Below, one piece after another: positions 1 through 15,327 of a stretch of DNA of 64,000 bases. The stretch is from the NCBI GenBank assembly GCA_040389445.1, contig JAZJZX010000003.1, positions 5,298-69,297 on the forward strand. Reading direction: 5' to 3'. The position numbers and the translations under genes are program-made. Under the pieces are notes generated by a model. It did no database searches and was not told the DNA's origin. It saw nothing but the letters and a program-made list of their open reading frames with translations. Source of the DNA: Chloroflexota bacterium (lineage in GTDB: Bacteria; Chloroflexota; Limnocylindria; Limnocylindrales; CSP1-4). Numbering within the stretch: the first letter of the stretch is position 1; every line of letters starts with the position of its first letter.

Positions 1-1
1 C

Positions 2-361
2 GGCGCGGTCGGCGACCTCATCGGCTTCCTCTGGATCGACGATCTCCGGGTCGACGCGGCCACGATCGTGCCGAAGCGCTGGGACGCGGTGACCACGCTG
101 GACGCGTTGACCGCCGCCCGCTCGGCCATCGCCGACACGGGTGCCGTCTCGTTCGAGGCGGATGAACTCGAGCCGCCGCTGCGCTCGCTCGCCGAGGCCC
201 GCGGCTGGAAGGCGGGCGACCTGTTCATGGCGATTCGCGTGGCCGTGACCGGCCGGACCGCCACGCCGCCGCTGTTCGACACGCTCGTTGCCCTTGGCCG
301 GGACCGTGTGCTGGAGCGCCTCGAAGGCGCCATCGAAGGGCTGGCAGCGGGCATCGCCTGA
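2..361 (+). CDS. gltX: Glutamate--tRNA ligase, C-terminal anticodon-binding domain (5'-truncated by window)
   Basis: Open frame from base 2; LFMAIRVAVTGRTATPPLFDTLVALGRDRVLERL is the typical GluRS C-terminus. Confidence 0.9.
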   Translation, partial: GAVGDLIGFLWIDDLRVDAATIVPKRWDAVTTLDALTAARSAIADTGAVSFEADELEPPLRSLAEARGWKAGDLFMAIRVAVTGRTATPPLFDTLVALGRDRVLERLEGAIEGLAAGIA

Positions 362-399
362 GGGCTGCAATGAGCCGTTAACACGAGCCGGTATCCTCG

Positions 400-1095
400 A
401 TGGTGATGGCCCGCACGATCCTCGTCGTCGAAGACGAGCCGACTCTCCGCGAGACGCTCGCAGAGGCGCTCGAAGCGGATGGATTCCGGGTCACCGTGGC
501 GGGCGACGGAAGAGGAGCGCTGGAGCGATTCCGCACCGACCACCCCGATCTCGTCCTGCTGGACCTGATGCTCCCGGAGATCTCCGGGATCGACGTCTGC
601 CGGCTGATCCGGGCCGAGTCGTCGGTCCCGATCATCATGCTGACCGCCCGCGGATCCGAGGTGGACAAGGTGGTCGGCCTCGAGCTCGGCGCCGACGACT
701 ACGTGACCAAGCCGTTCTCGCTCCGGGAGTTGTCCGCCCGAATTCGGGCGATCTTCCGGCGAGGTGAGCAGGCCTCGGCTTCGCGAGCCCCCGCCTTCAT
801 CGACCTCGGGACGGTGCGAATCGACCTGGCGGGTCATCGCATCCTGCGCGACGGCGTGGAAATCGCGATCAAGCCCAAGGTGTTCGAGCTGCTGGCGTTT
901 CTCCTTCGCCACCCGGGCCAGGTCGTCTCTCGCGACCAGTTGCTGGAGCAGGTCTGGGGGTACGACTACGCGGGCGAAACGCGCACCGTCGACGTCCACG
1001 TTCACTGGCTTCGAGCCGCGATCGAGGTTGAGCCGGCGAGGCCGGTGCTGGTCCAGACCATCCGCGGCGTGGGGTACGTGCTCCGGAATGCCTGA
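400..1095 (+). CDS. OmpR/PhoB-family response regulator (RegX3/PhoB-like); true start may be 403 or 406
   Basis: Receiver motifs VVEDE, LLDLMLP, MLTA, ADDYVTKPF; winged-helix end TRTVDVHVHWLR...TIRGVGY; phosphate-regulon neighbourhood. Confidence 0.92.
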   Translation: MVMARTILVVEDEPTLRETLAEALEADGFRVTVAGDGRGALERFRTDHPDLVLLDLMLPEISGIDVCRLIRAESSVPIIMLTARGSEVDKVVGLELGADDYVTKPFSLRELSARIRAIFRRGEQASASRAPAFIDLGTVRIDLAGHRILRDGVEIAIKPKVFELLAFLLRHPGQVVSRDQLLEQVWGYDYAGETRTVDVHVHWLRAAIEVEPARPVLVQTIRGVGYVLRNA

Positions 1096-1118
1096 ACGGA
1101 ATCCCGGGCCTGGCCCGA

Positions 1119-2126
1119 TCAGAGGACCCGGCTGAGCAACTCCCAGGCCAGCCAGGCGACCGCCCCCGAGGCGGGGAGGGTCAGGACCCACGCCACGAGG
1201 ATGTTGCCGGCGACGCCCCATCGGACGGCCGACAGTCGGTCGCTCGACCCGACGCCGATGATGGCCGACGAGATGACGTGGGTCGTCGAGACCGGCATGC
1301 CGAAGTGGGACGCGGTCAGGATGATCGTTGCGGCCGTGGTCTCGGCCGCAAAGCCATGGACGGGATCGAGCTTCACGACCCGCTGTCCCATCGTCCTGAT
1401 GATCCGCCAGCCGCCGGCCGCGGTTCCCAACGAGATCGCCGAGGCCGCCAGCAGGATCACCCAGAGCGGGATGGGCGACTCCTTTGGCAGGATCCCGGCG
1501 CCGATCAGGGCGAGCGTGATGATCCCCATCGTCTTCTGGGCGTCGTTCGACCCGTGGCTGAAGGCCATGAATGCGGCCGATACCACCTGGAGCTTCCGGA
1601 ATCGATCGTTCAGTCGCCTTGGATGGGCGCGCTGGAAGACATTCAGCAGGAGGACCATCAAACCGAAACCGACCAGGACCCCGAACAGCGGTGAGGTGAC
1701 CAGCGGAATCACGACCTTGCCGACGATGCCGTCCATCTTGAGCGCGCCGGTGCCACTCGCGGCGATGACCGCCCCGATGAGTCCGCCGATGAGGGCGTGA
1801 CTGGATGACGACGGGATGCCGAGGCGCCAGGTGATCAGGTTCCAGACGATGGCGCCGACCAGTGCCGCCGCGACGACGATCTGCCCGGCGCTGCCATCGG
1901 GGGTCACGGCGATCCCGGACGCGATCGTCTTGGCGACCGCGGTGCCGGTGAGCGCGCCCAGGAAGTTCGCGCTTGCCGACATCAGGATGGCGTGTTCCGG
2001 CCGGAGGGCTCGCGTCGAGACCGAGGTCGCGATGGCGTTTGCGGTGTCGTGGAAGCCGTTGATGTAGTCGAAGGCGACCGCAAGCACGATGACGGTGATC
2101 AGGAGGAGGGAAAAGCCTTCGGGCAC
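1119..2126 (-). CDS. Inorganic phosphate transporter, PiT family
   Basis: PiT signatures GFHDTANAIAT and HGSNDAQKTMG; PVSTTHVISSAIIG. Confidence 0.95.
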   Translation of the reverse strand: MPEGFSLLLITVIVLAVAFDYINGFHDTANAIATSVSTRALRPEHAILMSASANFLGALTGTAVAKTIASGIAVTPDGSAGQIVVAAALVGAIVWNLITWRLGIPSSSSHALIGGLIGAVIAASGTGALKMDGIVGKVVIPLVTSPLFGVLVGFGLMVLLLNVFQRAHPRRLNDRFRKLQVVSAAFMAFSHGSNDAQKTMGIITLALIGAGILPKESPIPLWVILLAASAISLGTAAGGWRIIRTMGQRVVKLDPVHGFAAETTAATIILTASHFGMPVSTTHVISSAIIGVGSSDRLSAVRWGVAGNILVAWVLTLPASGAVAWLAWELLSRVL

Positions 2127-2259
2127 GAGGGAAGGCTAGCAGGTCCGCCGATCCTCTCGCCGGTCTCCGCAAGTGCCTGGAGCCGCCGGGAGCGCCAGTG
2201 CGCCGGTCCTCCACCGGCGGTCGGACGCGTTGGCGGGTCGCGCCGCTATCCTTCCTGCC

Positions 2260-3993
2260 ATGCGCCTGAGCCAGCTCTTCTTCACCAGCCTCCGCGACGA
2301 TCCGGCCGATGTCGACATGCCGTCCCACCGACTCCTGCTTCGAGCCGGCTACATCCGGCAGCTGGGCTCCGGGATCTACTCGCTCCTGCCCCTCGGTTTC
2401 CGCGTCAACAAGCGGGTTGAGCAGGTCGTTCGCGAGGAGATGAACCGGATCGGCAGCCAGGAGATGGAGATGCCGGTGGTGCACCCGGCAGACCTGTGGC
2501 GCGAAACCGGCCGGTACGACGAGATCGGGCCGGAGATGGTCCGGTTCAAGGACCGGGCCGGTCGGGACATGGTCCTGGCAATGACCCACGAGGAGGTGGT
2601 CGCGGATCTCCTCCGTGACATCGTCCGCAGCTATCGCCAGCTGCCGATGATGGTCTATCACTTCCAGACCAAGTTCCGCGACGAGCCGCGCGCCCGCGGC
2701 GGCCTCATCCGCGTCCGCGAATTCGTGATGAAGGACGCGTACAGCATCGACCGCGACGATGCGGGGCTGGATGCGAGCTACTGGGCGCAGTACGGCGCCT
2801 ATGTCCGAATCTTCGAGCGCCTCGGACTCAAGGCGGTCGCCGTTGCGAGTGACGTCGGGATGATGGGCGGCAGCCTGGCCCACGAATTCATGGTCATCAA
2901 TCCGGCCGGCGAGGACGTGCTCGTCCTGTGCGAGGCCTGCGGCTATGCCTCGAACCGACAGGTCGCGGTCGTGCCGAAGGCCTCACCCGCGGGAGAGGAG
3001 CTGCTGCCCACGGAACCCGTCGAAACCCCCGGCACGGCCACGATCGCCGATCTCGCCGCCTTTCTCGACATCCCGATCGAGAAGACCGCCAAGGCGGCAT
3101 TCTTCACCGCCGGTGACGGCCGGCTCATCACGGCCATCGTCCGCGGGGACCACGAGGTCAACGAGACGAAGCTGGTCAACGCAGTCAAGGTGAACGGCGG
3201 CATCCGACCCGCAACCATCGACGAGATCAAGGCGGCCGGCATGGAGGCGGGCTACGGCTCGCCGATCGGGGCCCACGACACGACCGTCGTGGTGGACGAT
3301 CTGGTGGCTCGCTCACCCAACCTGGTCGCGGGGGCCAACCGGGTCGGCTACCACCTCCGGAACGTGAATGTCCCGCGCGATTACACGCCGGATGTGATCA
3401 CCGATATCACGAACGCGCGCGAGGGCGACGCCTGTCCCGACTGCGGCGGCTCGGTGATCCTGCGCAACGGGATCGAGGTCGGGAACATCTTCAAGCTCGG
3501 GACGAAGTACACGACGGCGCTCGGCGCCACGTACCTTGGCGAGGACGGCCAGGCCCACCCGATCGTCATGGGTTCCTACGGCATCGGGCTCGGGCGCAAC
3601 GTGGCCTGCATCGTCGAGGCCCACCACGACGAGAAGGGCATCGCCTGGCCCGACGAGGTTGCGCCCTATGCCGCCCACCTCGTCACGATCGGTGCCGCGC
3701 GCGACCCGAAGGTCGCGGAGATCGCGGATCGCCTTCACGACCTCGCGGCGACGGCCGGCCGCGACATCCTGTACGACGACCGCGATGAATCGCCCGGGGT
3801 GAAGTTCACCGACGCCGAACTGCTCGGCATGCCGTGGATCCTGACGGTGAGCCCGCGCTCGATCGCGGCAGGTGGGGCCGAGGTCACGCGTCGGGCGACG
3901 GGCGAGCGGCAGACGGTCTCCATCGACACGCTCGAGTCCTGGCTGCGCGACGGTTTCGCGATCCCGGACGCGCCTTCGTCCGCTCCAGTCTGA
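2260..3993 (+). CDS. proS: Proline--tRNA ligase (bacterial type with editing insertion)
   Basis: MRLSQLFFTSLRDDP start, FRDEPRARGGLIRVREF, GIEVGNIFKLGTKY, MGSYGIG; ATG at 2260 lies 7 nt after TATCCT. Confidence 0.97.
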   Translation: MRLSQLFFTSLRDDPADVDMPSHRLLLRAGYIRQLGSGIYSLLPLGFRVNKRVEQVVREEMNRIGSQEMEMPVVHPADLWRETGRYDEIGPEMVRFKDRAGRDMVLAMTHEEVVADLLRDIVRSYRQLPMMVYHFQTKFRDEPRARGGLIRVREFVMKDAYSIDRDDAGLDASYWAQYGAYVRIFERLGLKAVAVASDVGMMGGSLAHEFMVINPAGEDVLVLCEACGYASNRQVAVVPKASPAGEELLPTEPVETPGTATIADLAAFLDIPIEKTAKAAFFTAGDGRLITAIVRGDHEVNETKLVNAVKVNGGIRPATIDEIKAAGMEAGYGSPIGAHDTTVVVDDLVARSPNLVAGANRVGYHLRNVNVPRDYTPDVITDITNAREGDACPDCGGSVILRNGIEVGNIFKLGTKYTTALGATYLGEDGQAHPIVMGSYGIGLGRNVACIVEAHHDEKGIAWPDEVAPYAAHLVTIGAARDPKVAEIADRLHDLAATAGRDILYDDRDESPGVKFTDAELLGMPWILTVSPRSIAAGGAEVTRRATGERQTVSIDTLESWLRDGFAIPDAPSSAPV

Positions 3994-4042
3994 CACCCGC
4001 TCCGGCCTGACATCGACCGGCATCCGCTCGGCGCCGCGCCCG

Positions 4043-4126
4043 CCGAGCCACGCCAGGCCCACCGAGCCACGCCGGGCCGACCAGGCTCGATCGCCGACCA
4101 GGCTCGATCGCCGATCAGGCTCGATC
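4043..4126. repeat. Two abutting short tandem arrays (2x19 bp; 3x17 bp GCCGAYCAGGCTCGATC) between convergent genes
   Basis: 17-mers at 4076, 4093, 4110; 19-mers CCGAGCCACGCCRGGCCSA at 4043, 4062. Confidence 0.85.
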
Positions 4127-4675
4127 GCTTACCAGGGTTGCCTCGTCCAGGGTCGATCCATCCAGCGTCAGCACGGTGCCGTCATCCGTGGTCGCGACGG
4201 CTGCAACGAGCTCCGTGCTGGAGACGGATCCCGGCGGGGCAAGGTCAGCCCCGGGATCATCTGTTCGGGCGATGGCGAAGGTGATGCTCGGCGGGATCGC
4301 CGCGCCGATGGACACCTCGCTGATCCGGTAGGGAGATCCCTTGGCCTTCAGGGCGCCGTTGGCCCGCTCCTGGAGAGCGGTCGCCTTGATGATGACGTCG
4401 GCCAGGACCGCCGGATCGATCCGATCGATCGCCGTGCTGACGCCCCGTTTGGCACGGGACATCGCCTGTCGGGCCTTCTCCGCGGTAGCCGGATCGTGGA
4501 GCAAGGCCTGGGCCTTGTCGGTGCTTTCGGCGGCTGCATGGCGGGCCGATTCCGCGGCCTGCTTCGCCTGTTCGGCCGCCTGGCCCGCGGCCTGCCTGGC
4601 TCGGTCGAGAACGCTCATTCGACCCTCGATTCGATCGGGCGGCAAATCCTCCACGTCCAGACCGGACGGTTCCAT
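4115..4675 (-). CDS. Hypothetical protein (Ala/Gln-rich helical N-half; alternative start 4618)
   Basis: GC-typical codon use; TAGGGT 6 nt before ATG 4675; no family recognised. Confidence 0.7.
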   Translation of the reverse strand: MEPSGLDVEDLPPDRIEGRMSVLDRARQAAGQAAEQAKQAAESARHAAAESTDKAQALLHDPATAEKARQAMSRAKRGVSTAIDRIDPAVLADVIIKATALQERANGALKAKGSPYRISEVSIGAAIPPSITFAIARTDDPGADLAPPGSVSSTELVAAVATTDDGTVLTLDGSTLDEATLVSDRA

Positions 4676-4790
4676 GACCCGACCCTACCACCAAACGAGG
4701 CAGGAAAGGGAGGCCGTTTCTCAAGGCCGGGCAGCCTCGCTGTTGCGGCGCCGGGTCAGTCTTCCTTCGTTGACCGCGTGGGGCCGGGGT

Positions 4791-5603
4791 TCATGGTCGG
4801 ATACTGCGGCGTGGCCGACCACCGGGCTTCCACCCAGTGATCCCGGCGTTCACCGTCCCGAATGCCTCCGCATTTGAGTGCTGCGGGGCTCCTGCGAAGA
4901 CGTCGACGCCGCGGATGATCGCGACGTCGCGGAAACCGGCCGCCTCGACAAGCTCGCGTAGCTGGTCCTCGAGGAGGCCGCCGGCGATGCATCCGGTCCA
5001 CAGGCTCACGTCCTGCTTCGATGTTCCTTCGACAGGACGCGACAGGACGATGTCGACGAGCTGCAACCGACCGCCGGGTCGTAGCACACGGTGCATCTCG
5101 GCGAGCGCAGCCGCCTTGTCGGGCACGAGGTTCAGGACGCCGTTCGAGATGATGACGTCCGCCCAGCCCGTGGGTACGGGCATGGCCTCGAGCACGCCCT
5201 CGCGGAACTCGACGTTCGCGAGCGCGGCCAGCTCGGCCGAGCGCCGTGCCTTGGCGAGCATCTCGGGGGTCAGGTCGACCCCGATCACGAACCCATCTTT
5301 TCCCACCAGGCGCGCCGCGATGAGCGAGTCCGTGCCCGCCCCCGAGCCGCAGTCGACGACGTGTTCGCCGGGCCGGATCTCGCCGAGGGCGAATGGATTG
5401 CCCGTCCCCGCCATTGACTCGACGGTCGACGGCGGGAGCGCCGCGATCCAGTCTTCCGGATAGCCGAGGATCGCGGCCAGCCGGTACCCGGTATGGAAGT
5501 GAAACCCCCGCGCCGGATCGCTGGCAACTGCGGCGTACTCCTCGCGGATCGCGGTGCGCAGGGTGTCGAGGTCAACGAGCGGTTGCGGGGGTGCCTGGGT
5601 CAT
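4791..5603 (-). CDS. SAM-dependent methyltransferase, ArsM/AS3MT-like (only the last conserved Cys retained)
   Basis: VVDCGSGAGTD motif I, GVDLTPEML, IISNGVLNL, WTGCIAGG; SD-like GGAGG before ATG 5603; the track ORF 4791..6536 is an over-extension. Confidence 0.88.
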   Translation of the reverse strand: MTQAPPQPLVDLDTLRTAIREEYAAVASDPARGFHFHTGYRLAAILGYPEDWIAALPPSTVESMAGTGNPFALGEIRPGEHVVDCGSGAGTDSLIAARLVGKDGFVIGVDLTPEMLAKARRSAELAALANVEFREGVLEAMPVPTGWADVIISNGVLNLVPDKAAALAEMHRVLRPGGRLQLVDIVLSRPVEGTSKQDVSLWTGCIAGGLLEDQLRELVEAAGFRDVAIIRGVDVFAGAPQHSNAEAFGTVNAGITGWKPGGRPRRSIRP

Positions 5604-5656
5604 TGGTCTGCCTCCAGAAGAACCGGTGCCGTTCGGGTCCGCCGGGCTGGCGAGCC

Positions 5657-6220
5657 TCAGTCGAGGACGACGAGGTCCGTGTCCACCGGGACCGGGTTCG
5701 CCAGGCAGTCGCGAACCGGCGAGGTGTCCTGGACGTACTGGCAGAGCTCCTCTAGCTGTGCCGCGGTCGCGTTCGGCGAGCGCACCCAGCCCTTCGCCCG
5801 GATCGCGGTGAAGCCGGCCCGCGGTCCGTTCAGCCCGACGAACGTCCGAAGGTCCACGTCGCCCTCGACCTCGTAGCGCAGTTCGCTGATCTCGATCCCG
5901 CGAGCTGCGGCGTTGTAGGCGTAGCCCACGCCGTAGCAGAACGCGAGCGCCTGGAGGAGGAGCTCCACGGCGTTCGGCCCGGCGTTTCCGCCGAGGAGAA
6001 CCGGCGGCTCGTCGCCGACGAGCTGGAAGGTTGCTCCCCGGTCCGAGGTCGCGCCCGCATGGACGAAGTTCCCGATCGTGCCACGGCTCCGCCCGCCGGT
6101 CTCCCAGGTGCTGGCGGCCTTGAACGTGAAGGAGCCAATCTTCGGGTCGGAGCTGATCGCGCCGATCGTGGCGACAAGCTGGTCGACGTTGACGCCGTTG
6201 CGCGCAGTGATCGTGGCCAT
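5657..6220 (-). CDS. OsmC-like family protein
   Basis: DEPPVLLG...GPNAVELLLQALAFC; EVEGDVDLRTFVG; TSPVRD; SD GGAGG. Confidence 0.85.
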   Translation of the reverse strand: MATITARNGVNVDQLVATIGAISSDPKIGSFTFKAASTWETGGRSRGTIGNFVHAGATSDRGATFQLVGDEPPVLLGGNAGPNAVELLLQALAFCYGVGYAYNAAARGIEISELRYEVEGDVDLRTFVGLNGPRAGFTAIRAKGWVRSPNATAAQLEELCQYVQDTSPVRDCLANPVPVDTDLVVLD

Positions 6221-6276
6221 GGTTGAACACCTCCAGGGACGCGGAAGCCACGCCGTGTGGCCTCATCGGGGGAAGG

Positions 6277-6342
6277 GACGCTGGCGGCAGATTGGATATT
6301 CCCATCAGCATTTGGGAATATCCGGGCCTCGCGCGTCGTCTA
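6277..6342. promoter_or_regulatory. Back-to-back divergent ECF (SigR/SigH-like) promoters, GGAAT-N18-GTC on each strand
   Basis: Plus strand: GGAAT 6315-6319, GTCTA 6338-6342. Minus strand: GGAAT 6302-6298, GTC 6279-6277. The -35 boxes sit in a perfect 11-bp inverted repeat 6294-6323. Confidence 0.72.
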
Positions 6343-6387
6343 CCCTTGGATGACACGCTGTGCGGCCCGTTCGACAGGATCGAGGAC

Positions 6388-7032
6388 ATGGCCACGGTGA
6401 TGATCGACGCGGCGGAAGGCACGGCCGAAACCACGGGCCCCACGGCCGCCGCCGCCCGCCGGCCGTTCGCCGAGATCGCCCGCGAGAACCTCGATCGACT
6501 GTACGGGTACTGCGTCCACCTGTCCGGTGATCGCATGGACGCGGAAGACCTGCTCCAGGATGTGCTGATCCGGGCAATGCGCGCGTACGACGGGCTGCGT
6601 GATCAGGCGGCAGTCAAGACATGGCTGTTCACGGTCGCGACGAACTGCGCGCGCGACCGATGGCGGGCCCGCGGTCGACGGCTCGGTACCGTATCACTCG
6701 ACGCGGGCGACCCGGACGACGAGTTCTCACTCTTCGCGACGATCGCGATCGAGGATCCATTTCCATACTCGGACGCCCTTCATCTCGACTTCCTCCGACT
6801 GTTCGAGGATGAGGACATCCAGGCTGTGTTCACCACGATGACGCCAGGCTTCCGGGCGCCGATCCTGCTGACGACCATCCACGGATTCAGCTGCAAGGAG
6901 GCGGCGGCGATTCTCGGGATTCCACTCGGCACGCTCCTGTCGCGACTCCATCGCGGCCGGAAGCAACTGGAGCGTGGGCTCTGGGAGTACGCGGTTGGCC
7001 GCCGCCTTGTGACTGTGAGCGAGGAACCATGA
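6388..7032 (+). CDS. ECF RNA polymerase sigma factor (SigR/SigH-like)
   Basis: LYGYCVHLSGDRMDAEDLLQDVLIRA, TWLFTVATN (region 2); GFSCKEAAAILGIPLGTLLSRLHRGR (region 4). Confidence 0.92.
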   Translation: MATVMIDAAEGTAETTGPTAAAARRPFAEIARENLDRLYGYCVHLSGDRMDAEDLLQDVLIRAMRAYDGLRDQAAVKTWLFTVATNCARDRWRARGRRLGTVSLDAGDPDDEFSLFATIAIEDPFPYSDALHLDFLRLFEDEDIQAVFTTMTPGFRAPILLTTIHGFSCKEAAAILGIPLGTLLSRLHRGRKQLERGLWEYAVGRRLVTVSEEP

Positions 7033-7274
7033 TCGATTGTCCTGAAGCCGTCCGGCGGATGTGGGCCTACCTGGGAGCCGCCCTCGAGCCCGGCCCAACC
7101 GCCGAGCTCGAGGTGCACCTGGGGGCGTGCAAGCGCTGTTGCGGTGAGCTCGAGTTTTCACGCGAGCTACGGTCGCTCGTTTCCGCAACGAACGCTCCGG
7201 CCATGCCCGACGAACTGCGCAGCCGCGTCGAGCATCTCCTCGGAGCTGGGCCTGCGGGGGAGACCGAGCGATGA
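7029..7274 (+). CDS. ZAS-family (zf-HC2) anti-sigma factor
   Basis: N-terminal Cys plus HLGACKRCC (HxxxCxxC); ATGA overlap with the sigma gene. Confidence 0.9.
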   Translation: MIDCPEAVRRMWAYLGAALEPGPTAELEVHLGACKRCCGELEFSRELRSLVSATNAPAMPDELRSRVEHLLGAGPAGETER

Positions 7275-8125
7275 CGGACGTCCTCGTCGGGCACGTGGAC
7301 GGATCCGACCTCCTCCAGCAGGACGCGATCCGGGCGGCTGTGCGCGAGACGTACAGGGCTGTCCGGCCGACCGATCGCCGGGTCGCCGAACGGTTCTACG
7401 ACCCGGCCGACCTCGCCGGGCTGCCCGAGGAGACGGTCCGGATCGCCCTCGGCGTCGGCGATCCGATCCGGTACGCGGACCTGCAGCCGGGCGAGCGCGT
7501 CCTCGACCTCGGCTCAGGCGGCGGGATCGACTGCCTGCTTGCGGCCCGTCACGTCGGCCCGACGGGCGAGGTCATCGGGATCGACTTCCTCCCGGAGATG
7601 ATCGACCGGGCAATCGAAGCGGCCATCGCCGTCGGGGCCGCCAATGTCCGGTTCCTGCAGGCCGAGATCGAGGCACTCCCGCTCCCGGACGGGTCGGTCG
7701 ACGTCGTCGTCAGCAATGGCGTGCCGAACCTGTCGCCGCGCAAGGTCCGGGTGTTTGCCGAGGCCTTCCGGGTCCTTCGGCCGGGCGGACGCCTCGCGAT
7801 CGTCGATCTCGTCCTCGAACACGACCTGCCGCCGGAGATCGTCACGCATCCGGCAGCCTGGGCGGGCTGCCTCTCCGGTGCCCTCTCGGAGGTCGCCCTG
7901 TACAAGGGTCTGCGTCGGGCGGGTTTCCGCGACGTGGCGATCGAGCCGCTGGGCAACTTCGGGATCGAGGAGTGCGCGCTCTACCCGCTGTTCAGCGACG
8001 AGATCCTCGACCTCCTCCGCGCGCTGGTCCCCCCGGAGCGTCACGGCCGGATCGCGAAGAGTGTCCTGGTGCGGGCTCGCAAGGAGGCAGCCGGCGAGTC
8101 CCTGCCTGGACGGCTCCGCGACTGA
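7271..8125 (+). CDS. SAM-dependent methyltransferase, ArsM/AS3MT-like (only the last conserved Cys retained)
   Basis: [36 protein letters not shown]; ATGA overlap with anti-sigma. Confidence 0.88.
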   Translation: MTDVLVGHVDGSDLLQQDAIRAAVRETYRAVRPTDRRVAERFYDPADLAGLPEETVRIALGVGDPIRYADLQPGERVLDLGSGGGIDCLLAARHVGPTGEVIGIDFLPEMIDRAIEAAIAVGAANVRFLQAEIEALPLPDGSVDVVVSNGVPNLSPRKVRVFAEAFRVLRPGGRLAIVDLVLEHDLPPEIVTHPAAWAGCLSGALSEVALYKGLRRAGFRDVAIEPLGNFGIEECALYPLFSDEILDLLRALVPPERHGRIAKSVLVRARKEAAGESLPGRLRD

Positions 8126-8198
8126 GCCTGCGTCGAGCCCACCGGCCGTGGCGGCCGAAAATGATCGGGATCGATCCCGAACAGGATCGCCCCGGCGA

Positions 8199-8816
8199 TC
8201 AGGCGTGCTTGATCGTGATCCGCTCGATGATGTTCGCCACGTCCTCGCACTTGTCGATGGTGGCCTCGAGGAGCGCGTAGACCTCTTTCCACTTGATCAC
8301 TTCGAGGGGATCCCCGCCGCCCGAGAAGAGGTCCGCGATGGCCTGGCGGGCAAGCTGGTCACCCTCGTTCTCGAGGCGATGGACCTCGATCCAGTACTTC
8401 TCGAGACCACGGAAGCCACGCAGGTGGGTGAGCGCCTCGTGAAGCTGCTCACACTGGCGGACGATGATCGACGCCTGCTGGATGGCAACCGCAGTCGGCG
8501 CATCGATCCGGTAGAGCACGAAGGTGTCGGCCACCTCCTCGACGAAATCGAGGACGTCGTCGAGTCCGCTGATCAGGGCGTGGATCTCCTCGCGGTCGAA
8601 CGGCGTCACGAACGTCGCCTCGAGCCGATGCCCGATCTCGTGACTGAGCTCGTCGCCCCGGTGTTCGGCATCGCGAATCTCGCCGGCCCGCCGTTCGAGG
8701 ACGTCATACGAACGGAGCATCGCCTCGAGCAGGCGCGCGGCTCCCAGGACGTTCGCGGCATCCTCGGCGAACAGGTCGAAGAAGCGTTCCTCGCGGGGGA
8801 TCAGGCGCAGTCGCAA
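8199..8816 (-). CDS. DUF47 family phosphate-transport regulator (PhoU-like, PiT accessory)
   Basis: TTG start after GAGGAG; EHRGDELSHEI, TFVTPFDREEI, RLENEGD, LEATIDKCEDVANIIERI. Confidence 0.9.
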   Translation of the reverse strand: MRLRLIPREERFFDLFAEDAANVLGAARLLEAMLRSYDVLERRAGEIRDAEHRGDELSHEIGHRLEATFVTPFDREEIHALISGLDDVLDFVEEVADTFVLYRIDAPTAVAIQQASIIVRQCEQLHEALTHLRGFRGLEKYWIEVHRLENEGDQLARQAIADLFSGGGDPLEVIKWKEVYALLEATIDKCEDVANIIERITIKHA

Positions 8817-8913
8817 AGCGGGTCTCCTCGGCCGGCTGAGCGCGGGTGATGGCGTGGACCGGCACTGTCCACGGCACGTCGCAAGAGTACCGCGCGATCG
8901 CTCGGCGCGACGG

Positions 8914-8988
8914 ACGCGGCAGTACGCGGCGGGACGGACACGGCGGGACGGCGCGGGACCGACGCGGCGTGACGCGGCGCCACGGCGC
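8914..8988. repeat. Degenerate ACGCGGC heptamer array (10-bp/24-bp periodicity) in a divergent promoter region
   Basis: Copies at 8914, 8924, 8938, 8948, 8962, 8972, 8982. Confidence 0.65.
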
Positions 8989-9045
8989 ACACCCGCCACG
9001 CACCGCGCCCCTGGCGGCAGGACGCGATCGCCGGCCCCGTATGCG

Positions 9046-10335
9046 ATGCTCCCGCCCGTGGATTGGTTCGTGCTCTCGTTCGTCGCCCTGGAAGCCATCC
9101 TGATCGCCGTTGCCGTCGGGGTGGCCCTGGCCCGCGGGCGGACCCTCGACGCGATCGCCGAGCGCCTCGTGGATACAGGGGCCGGATCCTCCGTCGGCGC
9201 TCCGCCTCCGGACGACCTGATCGACGCCGTGGCGCGGCTTCGACGACGAGCGGACGCGGCTGAATTCGCGCTCGACCAGCGTCTCCGGGACCTCGCCTAC
9301 CTGGCGGACCTCATCGGGGTGGGCATCGTGCGTCTCAGCGACGACCTCCGGATCGAGGTTGCGAACACTGCGGCGCACGTCTTCCTCCATCGCGGGCCGG
9401 GAACCATGCTGGGTCGGACGGCGATGGAGGCGTTCGGCGACCACCGGATCGAGGGTCTCGCCCAGGAGGCGGCGGACCGTGGCGCGGCGGCCGGAGAGGT
9501 CAGCCTGCGAGACCCCGACGGGCCAACGCTCCTCATCCGCGCCCGCCGCTCGCCGATCCTGGGGATCTGGCTGGTCCTCGAGGACGTCGCCGAGCTCCGA
9601 CGACTACAGCGCATTCGGGCCGAGTTCATCGACAACCTGTCCCACGAGCTGCGCACGCCGATCACGACCATCGGCCTGCTCGCCGAGACCCTGGCCCGGG
9701 ACGCCGATGCGGCAGGGGAGGGGATTCCGACCCGCATGCGCGAACGAATCGGCAAGCTCGAGGTGGAATCGGGCACGGTGGCCCAGATGATCACCGAGCT
9801 CCTGGACCTCGCCCGGATCGAGAGCGGTGGCCGCCAGTTGCACCTGGACGACGTCGACCTCGGACGCCTCGCCGAGGAGACCGTGGAGCGACTCCGGCCC
9901 TTCGCCGACCGACTGCACGTCCGGCTGACGACGGAGGTTGCGCCCGGGCTGCCGTTCGTCGCCGGCGAGGCCGCCCAGCTCGGTCAGGTCTTCGCCAACC
10001 TCATCCACAACGCCGTGAAGTTCAGCCCGCCGGAATCGACCGTCACGGTCACGGTCCGGGTGGCCGGCGACCAGGTCGAGGCAGCCGTCGTCGACGAGGG
10101 GATCGGGATCGCGGCCACTGACCTGCCGCGGATCTTCGAGCGCTTCTACAAGGCAGATCGGTCGCGAACGGCGGGTGGCGGCACGGGCCTCGGTCTGGCC
10201 ATTGCCCGACACATCGTGGAGGGCCATGGCGGCCACCTGACGGCGCGTTCCGAGGAGGGCGCCGGTGCGACGTTCATCATGACGCTGCCGATGGCCGCCA
10301 CCGCCCGGCAACCAGCACTGATCCGAGGAGACTGA
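9046..10335 (+). CDS. Sensor histidine kinase (SenX3/PhoR-like, PAS-HisKA-HATPase)
   Basis: NLSHELRTPI H-box; NLIHNAVKFS; DEGIGI; FERFYKAD; GGTGLGLAI. Confidence 0.93.
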   Translation: MLPPVDWFVLSFVALEAILIAVAVGVALARGRTLDAIAERLVDTGAGSSVGAPPPDDLIDAVARLRRRADAAEFALDQRLRDLAYLADLIGVGIVRLSDDLRIEVANTAAHVFLHRGPGTMLGRTAMEAFGDHRIEGLAQEAADRGAAAGEVSLRDPDGPTLLIRARRSPILGIWLVLEDVAELRRLQRIRAEFIDNLSHELRTPITTIGLLAETLARDADAAGEGIPTRMRERIGKLEVESGTVAQMITELLDLARIESGGRQLHLDDVDLGRLAEETVERLRPFADRLHVRLTTEVAPGLPFVAGEAAQLGQVFANLIHNAVKFSPPESTVTVTVRVAGDQVEAAVVDEGIGIAATDLPRIFERFYKADRSRTAGGGTGLGLAIARHIVEGHGGHLTARSEEGAGATFIMTLPMAATARQPALIRGD

Positions 10336-11084
10336 TGCAGCACCTGGATGTCGCGACCCTCAACCTCCGGAACATCGCGGACCGCTGGCCTGAGCGGCTC
10401 CCGCTCCTGCTCTCCGACATGGCGGCCATCCAGCCGGACCTGCTGGGTCTGCAGGAATGCGTCTTCGCGATCGGGCAGGACCGGCTGCTGGGAGCCGCCG
10501 GCGACGCCCGCTACACGATCCACCGGGGTTGGGCGGGACGTCCCGAGTACGGCAACAGCGTGCTCGTCCGGGAGACGCTGACGGCCGGAGATGCCGAGCG
10601 CCTGGACCTCGGTCGACACCGTTCGGCGCTCCGGGTTCCGGTGAAGGTCGCGGACGGGCCCGCGATCGCGATGGTCGTCACGCACCTGCATCACGTTCCC
10701 GCCGATGAAGGCGAGCGCGAGGACCAGGCCCGGGCGCTCGTCTCGTGGCTGGCCGAGCGACCCGCCGCCGGCGGCATGATCGTCGTCGGCGATTTCAACG
10801 CCGAGCCGGTCGAGGCGACCTACCGGATCATGGTCGAGGCAGGCTTCCGGTCCGCCCACGCCGAGGCCAACGGGGCGGAACCCCCGGTCACCTGGCCCTC
10901 GGGGATCCAGGCCCCGGGCATGGATACGGACGGGGACCCCGGCTGCCTCGACTACATCTGGCTGCACGGACCACTTCGGGCTGCCGCGTGCCGGCTCGCG
11001 TGGGACCGACCCGCCGTCGACGATCCGACGCTGTACCCCTCGGATCACCTGGGACTGGTGGCGCGTCTCGCGCTCGGCTCATGA
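10335..11084 (+). CDS. Endonuclease/exonuclease/phosphatase (EEP) family protein
   Basis: LNLRN, GLQE, THL, GDFN, LDYI, PSDH motifs. Confidence 0.88.
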   Translation: MQHLDVATLNLRNIADRWPERLPLLLSDMAAIQPDLLGLQECVFAIGQDRLLGAAGDARYTIHRGWAGRPEYGNSVLVRETLTAGDAERLDLGRHRSALRVPVKVADGPAIAMVVTHLHHVPADEGEREDQARALVSWLAERPAAGGMIVVGDFNAEPVEATYRIMVEAGFRSAHAEANGAEPPVTWPSGIQAPGMDTDGDPGCLDYIWLHGPLRAAACRLAWDRPAVDDPTLYPSDHLGLVARLALGS

Positions 11085-11749
11085 GCGTGGCCCGCGCACT
11101 GCGCCTCGCCCACCGGGGTGACTGGCGGGTTGGGCCCGAGAATTCCCTCGCGGCCATGCGAGCGGCCCTCGCCAACCCGGCATGTGACGGCCTCGAGTTC
11201 GACGTCCGCGGCTCCCGCGAGGGGATCCCGATCCTCCTCCACGACGAGACGCTGGCCCGCGTCCAGGGCCGGCCGGAGCGACCCGGGCACCTGTCCGTCG
11301 CCGAGCTCGCCGCGGCCGGGATTCCGACGCTCGCCGAGGTGCTCGGCCTGGCCGGGCCGGGCCCGTTCCTCGACGTCGAACTGAAGGGCGAGCCGGTGCC
11401 CGACGTGGTGCCGGTGCTCGAGGCGGCCCGCGGGCCGGTGCTCGCGCGAACCGTTGTCTCGTCGTTCGAGCCCGAGACGCTGGGATGGCTGGGCCTTCTC
11501 CGGCCGCGCTGGCCTCGCTGGCTGAACGCGGAGGATCTGACCCCGCACACCATCGGGCTGGCGCACGACCTCGGATGTCGGGGCCTGTCCGTGGACTGGC
11601 GTGCCATCACCGCCGGCGGCATGTCGAGAGCGACTGCCTCCGGCCTCGAGGTCGCCGCCTGGACGGTGCGTCGTCGCTCGACCGCCGCTCGGCTCGAGCG
11701 CCTCGGCGTGATCGGGATCTGTGTCGAGGCCGCCGCGCTCGACGGCTGA
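11081..11749 (+). CDS. Glycerophosphodiester phosphodiesterase (GDPD family)
   Basis: AHRG...PENSLAA, LEFDV, LLHD, DVELK, AAWTV; ATGA overlap at 11081. Confidence 0.9.
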   Translation: MSVARALRLAHRGDWRVGPENSLAAMRAALANPACDGLEFDVRGSREGIPILLHDETLARVQGRPERPGHLSVAELAAAGIPTLAEVLGLAGPGPFLDVELKGEPVPDVVPVLEAARGPVLARTVVSSFEPETLGWLGLLRPRWPRWLNAEDLTPHTIGLAHDLGCRGLSVDWRAITAGGMSRATASGLEVAAWTVRRRSTAARLERLGVIGICVEAAALDG

Positions 11750-11816
11750 TCGAGAGCGGACCCGGGAACGGCTTCGGGTGATGTGCTCCCTCGCATCGCT
11801 CGCGACGAGCCTGGCG

Positions 11817-12722
11817 TCAGCAGCACGCCCCGCTGCCGCAGCCGCAGGCATCGCTCTCGACGACGGCCAACGCCCGCGTGGTGGTCGCCGACGGCAGTAC
11901 CTGGGCAAGGCGATCAAGGTCGATGCCCGTCCAGGCGGCGGGCTTCCGGGCCCGGATGATGGCCGAGTGGAGCCCGTCGGCAACGCTGTGCGTGGGCTGG
12001 ATGTCGATGTCGGTCAGCCCCACCGCCTGCAGGCCGTCGCGGAACTCGGTCATCGAGAGGGCCCCGGCGATGCAACCGACGAAACTGCCGCGCTCGGCGC
12101 GGTCCGAGGGCGAGAGGGAGTCCTCGGCCACGACGTCGCTGACCCCCATGCGACCGCCCGGCCGCAGCACGCGCGCAATCTCGGCGAAGACGGCGCCCTT
12201 GTCGGCGGCCAGGTTGATGACGCAGTTGCTGATCACGACATCGACCGAGGCGTCGTCGAGCGGTAGGGTCTCGATGGTGCCCTTGCGGAATTCGACGTTC
12301 TCGATCTTCGCCTCGACGGCATTGCGCCGTGCGAGGTCGAGCATCTCGTCGGTCATGTCCACGCCGATCGCGCGGCCGGTCGGGCCCACGCGCCGTGCGG
12401 AAAGCAGGACATCGATGCCGCCGCCCGACCCGAGGTCCAGGACGGTCTCCCCGGGCTGGAGTTCCGCCACCGCCGTGGGATTGCCGCACCCGAGCGAGGC
12501 GAGGACCGCTGCATCGGGCAGCTCGGCGCGGTCGTCCGGTGTGTAGAGGAGGGAGCCGAACACCACGCGGCCATCGTCCGTACAGCAGGAGTCAAGGGCT
12601 TCGGAGCGTTCGCCGTCGGGGCCGGAGCCGGCCACCCGGGCGGCCTCGGCATACCGTGCCTTGACCGCCCCATGGATGTCGTCAATCGGTGTGGACGCGG
12701 TCAATTCGGTCACGGGGATCAT
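11817..12722 (-). CDS. arsM: Arsenite methyltransferase
   Basis: [35 protein letters not shown]: all canonical Cys present; divergent from arsR; SD GAGGAGG. Confidence 0.92.
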
Positions 12723-12780
12723 CGGGCCTCCTCGGGTGTTCACACGGGCATCAACGCAATCGCGATCATCGTGCCCTGGT

Positions 12781-12840
12781 ATCGATGGCTATCAATATGA
12801 GGGCACATATAGACCCTTGTCAATATCGAAAGCTGTCGAA
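12781..12840. promoter_or_regulatory. Two ArsR/SmtB-type operator palindromes
   Basis: ATCGA-N6-TCAAT at 12781-12796 and ATCGA-N6-TCGAA at 12825-12840, in an AT-rich gap between divergent arsM and arsR; TAGACT -10 at 12841. Confidence 0.65.
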
Positions 12841-12852
12841 TAGACTTCGGGC

Positions 12853-13218
12853 ATGAAGCGCTCCCTCGACCCCGACGTCCAGCTGCTCGCAGCGCTCGCG
12901 GATCCGGTTCGGCTGACCATCGTCCGCCAGTTGGCCGACTGCGACGGGATCTGCGCCTGCGACTTCACCGACGCCTGCCGCGTCTCCCAGCCGACGGTGT
13001 CTCATCACCTGCGGGTCCTGCGCGAAGCGGGCGTCGTGACCTCCGAACGGCGCGGTTCCCAGATCTACTACCGCCTGGCCGCGACGGCCATCGGGCGGCT
13101 CGGTGCCATGGCACGCGAACTGGTCCCCGGCGATTTCGTGCCGGCCGGTGATCTTGTTCGGCGCAGCCGCACCACGGTGCCCCTGCTCAGCCCCGAGGGC
13201 CGTCCAGCTCCGCAGTGA
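12853..13218 (+). CDS. arsR: ArsR/SmtB-family metalloregulator
   Basis: ALADPVRL, ICACDF (alpha3 Cys), SQPTVSHHLRVL, RRGSQIYYRL. Confidence 0.9.
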   Translation: MKRSLDPDVQLLAALADPVRLTIVRQLADCDGICACDFTDACRVSQPTVSHHLRVLREAGVVTSERRGSQIYYRLAATAIGRLGAMARELVPGDFVPAGDLVRRSRTTVPLLSPEGRPAPQ

Positions 13219-13636
13219 CGAACCCCTCGGCCCACGCCTCGATCTCGTCGCGGATGCGGCGGAACGCGAACAGCCGATCTGCCTCGGTTCCAACGGCGGC
13301 AGCGGGATCCTCGAAGCCGGCGTGGACCCGGCGTCCACCGCCGGGAAAGACCGGACACGCCTCCGCAGCGTCATCGCAGACCGTGATGACGACGTCGAAG
13401 GGCCGATCGAGGAACTCGGTCATGGACCGGGACTTCGCGGCCGACCAGTCGATTCCGCGCTCGGCGAGGACCTGGATCGTCATCGGATGGACCGTCGACG
13501 GGTGCGTGCCGGCCGAGGCCACCGCCACCCTCGGCCCGCCGGCCCGGGCGAGGAACGCCTCGGCCATCTGGCTCCGGCAGCTGTTGCCGGTGCACAGGAC
13601 AAGCATGCGAACCGGGCCGCCTGTTTGACTGTTCAT
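13187..13636 (-). CDS. arsC: Arsenate reductase, LMW-PTP fold (thioredoxin-coupled type)
   Basis: CTGNSCRSQMAE P-loop; TVCDDAAEACP; FEDP; FRRIRDEI. Confidence 0.9.
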   Translation of the reverse strand: MNSQTGGPVRMLVLCTGNSCRSQMAEAFLARAGGPRVAVASAGTHPSTVHPMTIQVLAERGIDWSAAKSRSMTEFLDRPFDVVITVCDDAAEACPVFPGGGRRVHAGFEDPAAAVGTEADRLFAFRRIRDEIEAWAEGFVTAELDGPRG

Positions 13637-13646
13637 GACCCACATC

Positions 13647-14366
13647 CTACGGGTTGAGGTCCTCGACGCGCCCGGTCGCCAGATGAACGACATCCTCGGC
13701 GATGTTCGTGACCCGATCGCCGATCCGCTCGAGCCAGTGGGCCACGAGAATCGTTCGCGTGCCGCGCTCGACGGCGTCGGGGTCCGCCTGCATCTCCGCA
13801 ACCGCGGTCGTGAACACGCGGCTGTACCCATGATCGATCTCGTCATCCCCGGCGGCCACGGTACGGGCCGCCTCGCTGTCCGCGTCCACCAGCGCGCGCA
13901 GGATCCCGCCGACGAGCGAAGCCGCCAGGTCACCCATTCTGGCGAGCTCGGTTGCCGCCGGGACCGGCGCCCCGTCGGGCATCCGCCGGACCTGCTTCGC
14001 CACTCCGACCGCGTGGTCACCGATCCGCTCCAGTTCGGAGGCCACGTGGTTCAGGGCCAGGAGGAACCGCAGGTCCCGGGCCACCGGCGACTGCGTCGCG
14101 ATCGTGATGGCGATGAGGTCCGTGACCTGGCGCTGCATCCCGTTGATCTCGGCGTCGCCGGCGATGACGGACTCCGCCAGCACGCCGTCCCGCGCGACAA
14201 ATGCGCGGATCGCGCTGGCGATCTGGCGCTCGACCCTCGACCCCATGCGCAGCACCGCATCCTTGATCTGGCGCTCCTCGCGGTCGAGGGTGCCGCGGGA
14301 CGGGAGGCCCGGCACGCCACCGACCGCGCCCTCGCGCACGGGATCGCTCGTCGGTCGATCCATCAC
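13647..14366 (-). CDS. phoU: Phosphate signalling protein PhoU
   Basis: [32 protein letters not shown]. Confidence 0.95.
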
Positions 14367-15322: not shown

Positions 15323-15327
15323 CACGA

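Follow-up and report, generated by a model that had tools for sequence, protein, structure and literature searches.

In SigH-RshA of Mycobacterium and Corynebacterium and in SigR-RsrA of Streptomyces, a two-domain sigma factor of the extracytoplasmic function (ECF) group is cotranscribed with a small soluble anti-sigma factor, which carries an N-terminal cysteine and an HxxxCxxC motif. Anti-sigma factors of this RsrA/RshA type, which belong to the ZAS proteins, release the sigma factor when their thiols are oxidised or alkylated, and some other ZAS proteins are not redox-sensitive. The SigH regulon comprises at least 25 directly regulated genes, including genes for redox homeostasis and protein turnover (PMC4803200). 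The locus described here is a five-gene module at positions 4791-8125 of a 64,000-nucleotide stretch of DNA from a Chloroflexota bacterium (contig JAZJZX010000003.1; hereafter the window), which has a G+C content around 69% and whose closest matches are Chloroflexota of the Limnocylindria/CSP1-4 kind. The module joins a switch that, judged by its sequence, is a paralogue-like relative of the SigH-RshA and SigR-RsrA pairs to an output composed of an OsmC-family protein and two class I S-adenosylmethionine (SAM)-dependent methyltransferases of the ArsM clade, named here MT1 and MT2. This type of switch is known, whereas the dedicated output is uncharacterised and lies outside the definition of the ArsM family whose name it bears. 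The module is real and is conserved across soil Chloroflexota and Actinomycetota.

The five genes form two divergent transcription units and were identified by matches to Pfam and NCBIfam profiles. On the minus strand, the gene for the OsmC-family protein (5657-6220; 187 aa; PF02566, 65.5 bits with a cut-off of 27.5) is followed by MT1 (4791-5603; 270 aa; Pfam Methyltransf_31, 103 bits). On the plus strand, the gene for the ECF sigma factor (6388-7032; 214 aa; PF04542, 63.1 bits, and PF08281, 35.4 bits) is followed by those for a zf-HC2 anti-sigma factor of the ZAS type (7029-7274; 81 aa; PF13490, 26.4 bits with a cut-off of 22.2) and for MT2 (7271-8125; 284 aa; matched by NF008823 and Pfam). 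These boundaries were reproduced by an independent gene caller on a public contig, where MT2 has 100% protein identity and the gene order and product lengths are the same. An earlier reading of the window, made from its sequence only (the sequence-only reading), had described this divergent set of five genes, and all of them were found where it had placed them, with the support of the profiles. It had also described the genes as translationally coupled. This holds for the plus strand, where ATGA overlaps join the sigma stop to the anti-sigma start (7029-7032) and the anti-sigma stop to the MT2 start (7271-7274). It does not hold for the minus strand, where OsmC and MT1 are co-oriented and close but do not overlap, since a 53-nt spacer with a GGAGG ribosome-binding site separates the OsmC stop (5657) from the MT1 ATG (5603). 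A hypothetical open reading frame (ORF) of 167-186 aa, with a moderate G+C content at third codon positions (0.78), is located downstream of MT1 (4115-4675, minus strand). It had no match in a Pfam search and was rejected as a member of the module, its conservation (76-81% identity) being confined to L006 and L007, the loci of the two closest relatives.

The sigma factor has sigma2 and sigma4 domains only, and its match to TIGR02937 (68.5 bits, above the cut-off of 42.9) places it among the ECF sigma factors. Its nearest NCBIfam model is actinobacterial SigH, but its score against the equivalog SigH_actino (TIGR02947) is 92.3 bits, below the cut-off of 251.55, and its closest solved relatives are SigE (79.6 bits) and SigH (75.9 bits) of Mycobacterium tuberculosis, so that it is as near to the former as to the latter. 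On these scores it is a relative of SigH and SigE and not an orthologue. It also differs from SigH in its sigma2-sigma4 linker of around 20 residues (residues 122-143; 6751-6816), which is invariant in the form EDPxPYSxxxHxDFLxxFxxED (EDPFPYSD..HLDFL in the window) and exceeds much of sigma2 and sigma4 in conservation among orthologues that are 39-75% identical overall. The linkers between sigma2 and sigma4 of ECF sigma factors are usually poorly conserved.

The anti-sigma factor presents the ligand pattern C4-X25-H30-X3-C34-X2-C37, a spacing that we take to be that of the RsrA ligands C11/H37/C41/C44. RsrA is also its nearest curated family, although the score against TIGR03988 (46.3 bits) is below the cut-off of 62.5. 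The four ligands are kept in 50 of 50 orthologues. The same is true of an additional cysteine, C38, which extends the motif to HxxxCxxCC (C34-C38, 7128-7142) and which the RsrA motif presumably lacks. Inspection of the 81 residues by eye, no predictor having been run, showed no evident transmembrane segment, and if there is none the signal would be cytoplasmic. Because some ZAS proteins do not respond to redox changes, we infer the trigger by analogy with the RsrA/RshA type: it would be a thiol-reactive species.

The 167-bp region between the OsmC and sigma genes contains an imperfect palindrome, GGATATTCCCA-N8-TGGGAATATCC (6294-6323), each arm of which is the -35 element of an outward-facing promoter of the ECF type. 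The predicted autoregulatory promoter P_sig (6314-6342, plus strand) consists of the -35 element GGGAATA (6314-6320), a spacer of 17 nt and GTC, within the -10 element CGTCTA (6337-6342). The predicted promoter P_osmC (6277-6303, minus strand) has the same -35 element (6303-6297), the same spacer and GTC within the -10 element CGTC (6280-6277), and it would leave a leader of around 50 nt before the OsmC ATG. A scan of the whole window with GGAATA-N13-19-CGTC gave two matches, both in this intergenic region, and no further copies elsewhere in the 64 kb; the longer motif of the minus strand had 0 matches in 100 shuffles. The sequence-only reading had pointed to a matching promoter on each strand, and GGGAATA-N17-GTC is indeed found both ways, in a pair that recurs in around 90 of 96 distinct divergent intergenic regions (GGAAT-N17-19-GTC faces OsmC in 89 of them and sigma in 91). 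Their consensus sequences are gGGAATAaCtTCg...CGTC and cGGGAATAatc...CGTC. Where OsmC has been displaced, as in locus L076, there are four copies of the motif: one precedes OsmC, another is divergent from it, and the other two precede sigma and MT1. The Actinomycetota loci have a co-varying motif, TGCAATA(A/G)C-N15-CGTC, before both OsmC and sigma, sometimes as a divergent pair. A -35 element that changes along with the sigma factor and marks every transcription unit is what is expected of an autoregulated ECF regulon. All this provides strong indirect evidence that the sigma factor drives the OsmC and methyltransferase genes from both predicted promoters.

The consensus of M. tuberculosis SigH, which has an autoregulatory promoter, is GGAAYR-N17-GTT (PMC4803200). 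The -35 element (GGAATA) and the 17-nt spacing of the module promoters are identical to it, whereas the -10 trimer differs in its last base (GTC instead of GTT). The regulon described for SigH is also larger, the module having two local promoter sites in the 64 kb searched, with OsmC and methyltransferases as predicted targets. A scan of positions 4000-8900 for sigma-70 promoters and terminators gave nothing above chance, and an Rfam scan of positions 1-16000 gave no matches. In the OsmC leader (6221-6276, minus strand), a GC-rich hairpin was seen by eye just upstream of the Shine-Dalgarno sequence in most Chloroflexota loci (L006-L169), where around 55-62 nt extend from the -10 element to the ATG. 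The stems of this hairpin vary by clade (GAGGCCAC/GTGGCTTC, GCGGTC/GACCGC or GCCGG/CCGGC), and a C-rich tract upstream of it could pair with the Shine-Dalgarno sequence. Its minimum free energy gives weak z-scores (mean -0.58), and in some loci the leader is short and has no hairpin.

The conservation of the module as a unit was followed from two anchors. With OsmC as the anchor, one genome per GTDB species was scanned; 245 relatives were confirmed, the best 80 were kept, and their loci were typed by tblastn with the five proteins of the window. With sigma as the anchor, metagenome contigs were scanned; 535 relatives were confirmed and the best 80 kept. Sigma adjoins OsmC in 51 of the 80 genome loci, and 50 of these also have the anti-sigma factor and MT2; the remaining one is cut by the end of the contig, so that sigma alone is visible. 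MT1 is present in 29 of the 50 loci, either after OsmC or after MT2, and is an accessory member of the module. Among the metagenome loci with enough downstream sequence, the anti-sigma gene is found in 61 of 61 and MT2 lies directly after it in 39 of 39, while OsmC is found in about 45 of the 46 loci in which 800 nt or more are available upstream (L118 lacks it). Therefore, the conserved-neighbourhood search that the sequence-only reading had proposed as a check came out in its favour, as the co-occurrence in other genomes holds from two independent anchors and in two collections. It is practically negligible as a possibility that unrelated genes have been juxtaposed by chance around a fortuitous palindrome; the synteny seen from both anchors in both collections, the conserved promoter pair and the 0 of 100 shuffles refute it.

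Around the 50 module loci no other conserved neighbours, such as transporter, thioredoxin, sulfur or ars genes, were found, and no cluster of flanking ORFs extends over more than 5 loci. Since there is no common flanking gene, the module is self-contained and set in varied contexts. In the Chloroflexota the layout is divergent, as in the window, while in the Actinomycetota the genes are co-directional and the position of MT1 is variable. The actinobacterial carriers include Acidimicrobiia, one metagenome-assembled genome (MAG) of Nitriliruptoraceae and the cultured species Haloechinothrix alba (DSM 45207; L085) and H. aidingensis (YIM 98757; L079), and one MAG of Acidobacteria has the same layout as these. 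MAGs labelled Planctomycetota, Zixibacteria and Verrucomicrobiia (L027, L030, L043) carry, on short contigs, OsmC or module copies that are 75-77% identical to those of Limnocylindria, for which mis-binning is more likely than a wide horizontal spread. The plasmid collection contained only distant OsmC homologues (38-48% identity) in unrelated contexts.

The arsenite methyltransferases (ArsM/AS3MT; NF008823; PDB 4FR0 and 5EVJ) are the family from which the two methyltransferases of the module appear to descend. The catalytic cysteines of CmArsM are, as we assume, Cys44, Cys72, Cys174 and Cys224, the last two being those that bind arsenic. MT1 and MT2 share with this family the SAM-binding core, the SNxVxNL motif, the last catalytic cysteine (CxxGAL) and a similar three-domain layout, and their class I SAM-binding fold is recognised by Pfam (Methyltransf_31/25/11). 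They are 44% identical to each other, and MT1 is 43% and MT2 51% identical to the canonical ArsM encoded elsewhere in the window (11817-12743). Both score below the cut-off of 263 of NF008823 (218.7 for MT1 and 239.1 for MT2). In MT1 the N-terminal cysteine pair is replaced by HFH, the motif GCGNP by GTGNP and SNCV by SNGV, so that the sole ArsM cysteine kept is Cys205 (WTGCIAGG), which is present, together with H35, in 19 of 19 orthologues. In MT2 the N-terminal cysteine is missing, the other two motifs read GVGDP and SNGV (Cys to Val and Cys to Gly when aligned to ArsM 5evj), and its sole ArsM cysteine, Cys200 (WAGCLSGAL), is kept in 46 of 46 orthologues; a further cysteine that is specific to the family, Cys235 (EECALYPLF), is found in 43 of 46. 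Of the four cysteines that handle As(III), each protein keeps one, the equivalent of Cys224. The equivalent of Cys174 is an invariant glycine (46/46 MT2 and 19/19 MT1 orthologues), and that of Cys72 is threonine in MT1 and valine in MT2. The description of both proteins as atypical and ArsM-like in the sequence-only reading is thus borne out by the profile scores and by the loss of three of the four cysteines. Due to this loss, methylation of As(III) by the canonical mechanism is improbable, and the two enzymes probably do not carry it out. The cysteine that remains, in the CxxG motif, occupies the "UxxG" position, which is selenocysteine in the ArsM proteins that are selenoproteins (PMC13188914).

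MT1 and MT2 also differ from ArsM in their context, as they are under the predicted control of an ECF sigma factor instead of ArsR and show no consistent linkage to ars genes in other lineages. The AlphaFold2 model of MT2 (predicted local distance difference test, pLDDT, 84) has as its best Foldseek matches the ArsM structures 5evj and 4fr0 (TM-score 0.63-0.65, E 1e-17), followed by RebM, AtmM, MitM and TleD, which methylate small molecules in natural-product pathways (E 1e-15 to 1e-14). The best NCBIfam match of MT1 is NF041537, an ArsM/AhpD selenoprotein family (227.6 bits, with a cut-off of 510). This and other families of selenoprotein fusions (NF041537 ArsM_AhpD_UU, NF041536, NF047649) resemble the module in that an ArsM-like methyltransferase has a cysteine or selenocysteine redox partner of the AhpD or OsmC kind. 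They differ in that the partners in the module are separate genes without selenocysteine, with scores far below the cut-offs (228 against 510 bits, and 47.5 against 95). The ArsM/AhpD selenoprotein families, reportedly defined by Haft and Tolstoy in 2025, belong to a set of families that are themselves uncharacterised. In public databases the methyltransferases of the module are named "arsenite methyltransferase", "SAM-dependent methyltransferase" or "methyltransferase domain-containing protein", the first of these being given to many MT2 orthologues at the Joint Genome Institute (JGI). The tellurite methyltransferase of the TPMT type (PMC10128142) was considered as a relative and rejected, as it belongs to an unrelated family.

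The OsmC-like protein shares with the OsmC/Ohr peroxidases the OsmC fold and the cysteine at the peroxidatic position, has an N-terminal extension of around 60 aa, and is at least 64% identical across phyla among the best 80 genome loci, with PF02566 above the gathering score. Cys95, at the peroxidatic position in the first helix (GPNAVELLLxALxxC), is kept in 80 of 80 sequences. The resolving cysteine of OsmC/Ohr proteins, which we take to lie in a C-terminal CPV motif, is replaced by a serine, Ser167 (TSPV), in 79 of 80, whereas another cysteine, Cys160, is found two helical turns upstream of that position in 76 of 80. The only solved relative is 2OPL, a hypothetical protein of unknown function (E 5e-34), which shares the 187-aa architecture with the N-terminal extension and Cys95, but not Cys160. 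The best curated match is NF041052, "OsmC-related (seleno)protein" (47.5 bits, with a cut-off of 95). An AlphaFold2 model was too poor for use (pLDDT 58), the likely reason being a shallow alignment of 19 sequences that are at least 74% identical.

This OsmC subfamily also occurs outside the module. Its second context, found in 14 of the 80 loci (L008, L010, L022, L027, L033, L034, L046, L047, L050, L053, L068, L069, L073 and L077), four of which have MT1, consists of a TetR regulator and a fusion of around 700 aa between an alpha/beta-hydrolase and a GT28 C-terminal domain. OsmC lies at about 6001-6560 in most of these loci, and the fusion protein is 55-65% identical across phyla. In Acidimicrobiia these genes are followed by MT1 and an O-methyltransferase (PF00891), and several Limnocylindria genomes carry the TetR-context and ECF versions of OsmC together, as paralogues. 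In Arthrobacter rhizosphaerae (L078:5158-7364) an OsmC-MT1 pair without sigma is divergent from a regulator of 240 aa in which an ArsR-type helix-turn-helix (HTH) domain is fused to a rhodanese, whose nearest curated model is "rhodanese-related (seleno)protein"; here the same two effectors would be under another sensor. Plasmid p49879.2 of Leptospirillum ferrooxidans (L087:1069-6319) carries a distant homologue of OsmC (43% identity, with the same 188-aa architecture); the genes after it encode a hydrophobic protein without annotation, a cysteine desulfurase, a class I SAM methyltransferase of 213 aa and a DMT transporter.

The regulatory logic of the module, in which the anti-sigma factor holds sigma and its release fires two back-to-back promoters, is well supported. 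At rest, the small soluble anti-sigma factor would hold sigma through a fold that depends on the zinc site C4/H30/C34/C37. Oxidants, electrophiles or soft metalloid or chalcogen species, all of them thiol-reactive, would attack this site, and the released sigma factor would transcribe both GGAATA-N17-GTC promoters. P_sig would drive sigma, the anti-sigma factor and MT2, which would give positive feedback and then a reset, while P_osmC would drive OsmC and, where present, MT1. The output would be a two-cysteine thiol enzyme of the OsmC family, acting perhaps as a thiol-based reductase or carrier, and one or two SAM methyltransferases of ArsM descent. The trigger, the dependence on sigma in vivo, the substrate and the role of OsmC are what we infer here from the locus and its relatives. 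Of the sequence-only reading, the conserved unit, its wiring and its separation from the ars genes hold, while its proposal that a thiol-reactive species is sensed and then removed by methylation is, like ours, a hypothesis.

The explanation that we favour, with belief somewhat outweighing doubt, is that of an autoregulated, self-contained ECF/ZAS stress module whose output, OsmC and the ArsM-derived methyltransferases, acts on a soft nucleophile. Our best guess from the sequences is that the methyltransferases act on a small one, which may be sulfide, methanethiol, sulfane sulfur, or selenide or telluride. This is suggested because the As(III) triad has been lost while the cysteine equivalent to selenocysteine is strictly kept. 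Several hints point to sulfur or selenium: the best curated matches of MT1 are ArsM-like domains fused to AhpD or other selenocysteine/cysteine redox domains, and that of OsmC is a (seleno)protein model; the ArsR-HTH::rhodanese regulator adjoins OsmC-MT1 in A. rhizosphaerae; and a cysteine desulfurase and a SAM methyltransferase lie near the distant OsmC homologue of the Leptospirillum plasmid. Selenite and tellurite are strong thiol oxidants, which would suit a ZAS sensor, and the presence of two paralogous methyltransferases would fit, weakly, two methylation steps. There is also a precedent, which supports a soft nucleophile, in MddM1 and MddM2, small and apparently unrelated methyltransferases that methylate H2S and methanethiol and are induced by oxidative stress (PMC12904073). 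Together with MddH they detoxify such soft sulfur nucleophiles and are described as induced by oxidative stress (PMC11445057, PMC12904073). Like MT1 and MT2, the three Mdd enzymes are class I SAM methyltransferases of the cytosol and occur in Actinomycetota and Chloroflexota; unlike them, they are, by the description of those papers, proteins of around 204-210 aa of the UbiG/UbiE type, which do not resemble ArsM and for which no ECF/ZAS or OsmC partner is reported.

Several points weigh against the favoured explanation. The hints of sulfur and selenium are circumstantial and come from matches below threshold or from contexts that are distant or in the minority. Some ZAS proteins do not respond to redox changes, and that of the module scores below the RsrA equivalog cut-off (46.3 against 62.5 bits). 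The promoter search covered 64 kb of the genome, so that the regulon could be larger. The existence of TtArsM, an arsenite methyltransferase of a different lineage that has one cysteine and weak activity (PMC8649762), means that the loss of cysteines does not strictly exclude As(III). Finally, the model of MT2 matches RebM, AtmM, MitM and TleD almost as well as ArsM, and an organic substrate is suggested by the loci in which the OsmC subfamily stands with TetR, the alpha/beta-hydrolase::GT28 fusion and an O-methyltransferase.

If the alternatives are ranked by chemistry, a soft chalcogen nucleophile comes before an organic electrophile or peroxide, which comes before arsenite or antimonite handled with fewer cysteines, and a part of MT2 in the switch itself comes last. 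A response to an organic electrophile, peroxide or xenobiotic is rather unlikely. The ZAS protein would sense, for instance, a quinone or an organic hydroperoxide, OsmC would reduce the peroxide, and the methyltransferases would end redox cycling by O- or S-methylation of the compound, of its reduced form or of a thiol conjugate. Proteins of the OsmC/Ohr family reduce organic hydroperoxides, and switches of the RsrA type react to electrophiles; the similarity of the MT2 model to small-molecule methyltransferases (E 1e-15, against 1e-17 for ArsM) would agree with this, as would the 14 of 80 OsmC loci with TetR and the hydrolase fusion, to which the Acidimicrobiia add the PF00891 O-methyltransferase. 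However, the invariant CxxG cysteine in both methyltransferases would be unexpected in an enzyme that O-methylates an organic compound, OsmC has serine in place of the canonical resolving cysteine, and no transporter or xenobiotic gene is conserved beside the ECF version. It is also quite unlikely that the three effectors make up a split methylation machine with a cysteine relay, acting on a soft chalcogen or metalloid (sulfane sulfur or sulfide, selenide, telluride, As or Sb). In such a machine, the two-cysteine OsmC-like protein would capture and reduce the species as a thiol adduct and pass it on to the two single-cysteine methyltransferases, which would add two methyl groups to give a volatile product, and the CxxCC zinc site of the anti-sigma factor would sense the same species directly.

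A dedicated response to arsenite or antimonite is decidedly doubtful. The CxxCC site would bind As(III) or Sb(III) directly, and MT1 and MT2 would be arsenite or methylarsenite methyltransferases with fewer cysteines, the missing thiols being supplied by histidine, by Cys235 of MT2 or by the cysteines of OsmC in trans. ArsM is the closest family by sequence and fold, many MT2 orthologues bear the name of arsenite methyltransferase at JGI, the anti-sigma factor has three clustered invariant cysteines (C34, C37 and C38), and an ars cluster lies 3.7 kb away in the window and is present in the close relative L007. TtArsM, moreover, methylates As(III) with a single cysteine (PMC8649762), but its lineage is different and its activity weak. 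The As(III)-binding residue equivalent to Cys174 is glycine in every MT1 and MT2 orthologue compared (19/19 and 46/46), and both proteins fall under the curated ArsM cut-off that the neighbouring ArsM exceeds. The genome already has a canonical ArsR-ArsM-ArsC set, and outside this lineage there is no consistent linkage to ars genes, none of which is among the conserved flanking genes. Very improbable, in turn, is a signalling device in which MT2 would methylate a zinc-thiolate cysteine of the anti-sigma factor, or a cysteine of OsmC, to set or reset the switch. Zinc-thiolates are good methyl acceptors, as in Ada, and in 39 of 39 loci the MT2 gene lies directly after the anti-sigma gene, the start codon of the one overlapping the stop codon of the other; nevertheless, coexpression of an effector explains this tight gene order equally, SAM-dependent methylation of a ZAS protein is without precedent, and the ArsM-like pocket is built for small substrates.

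The ars cluster of the window (11817-13636) includes the canonical ArsM (11817-12743, minus strand), which exceeds the cut-off of NF008823 (290.8 bits against 263) and has all the catalytic cysteines (the CC pair, GCGNP, SNCVINL and GCIAGAL) and, at its C-terminus, the tail CGCGSGACC. ArsR (12853-13218, plus strand) is divergent from this gene and overlaps by around 30 bp, on the opposite strand, with an ArsC-like gene of the low-molecular-weight-phosphatase type (13187-13636, minus strand; TIGR02691, 116 bits, below 174). The sequence-only reading had noted a canonical arsRM set in the vicinity and had set the module apart from it. Both statements agree with what was found: the cluster is 3.7 kb from the module, and canonical ars genes stand beside the module in one other locus only (L007), a few others having weak ArsM-like matches (37-48% identity). 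The cluster is wedged between genes of the phosphate regulon, and the module itself is located in a phosphate-signalling neighbourhood, with the same synteny in the closest relatives (L006 and L007). This neighbourhood includes an OmpR-type response regulator (400-1095), Pit (1119-2126, minus strand), DUF47/PhoU_div (8199 to around 8816, minus strand), a PAS histidine kinase (8854-10335) and PhoU (13647-14366, minus strand). The genes for DUF47 and Pit are usually side by side; here, proS, a hypothetical gene and the five-gene module lie between them.

No description of this module was found in the literature that was searched in full text, which is in agreement with its designation as undescribed in the sequence-only reading. 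The re-classification of ECF sigma factors by Casas-Pastor 2021, with 157 groups and their contexts, may contain this sigma group, and its main text names neither OsmC nor methyltransferases. The module does not represent a new principle unless cysteine-relay methylation proves true. It does provide a compact ECF/ZAS regulon with local and predictable wiring (two promoters and five genes), and it is directly testable, given that two cultured species of Haloechinothrix carry it. Thousands of metagenomic proteins of the MT2 family, many of them labelled "arsenite methyltransferase", do not have the arsenic-binding cysteines, and counts of arsM based on homology may overestimate the potential for arsenic methylation in soils rich in Chloroflexota and Actinomycetota. 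If the substrate were sulfide, methanethiol, selenide or telluride, the module would be an unrecognised source of volatile methylated chalcogenides; if the cysteine relay were true, it would give soil Chloroflexota and Actinomycetota a new and widespread means of forming volatile methylated compounds, at present hidden under annotations as arsenite methyltransferase. The recurrent pairing of ArsM-like methyltransferases with thiol or selenol proteins of the AhpD or OsmC type hints at a general, uncharacterised two-component chemistry.

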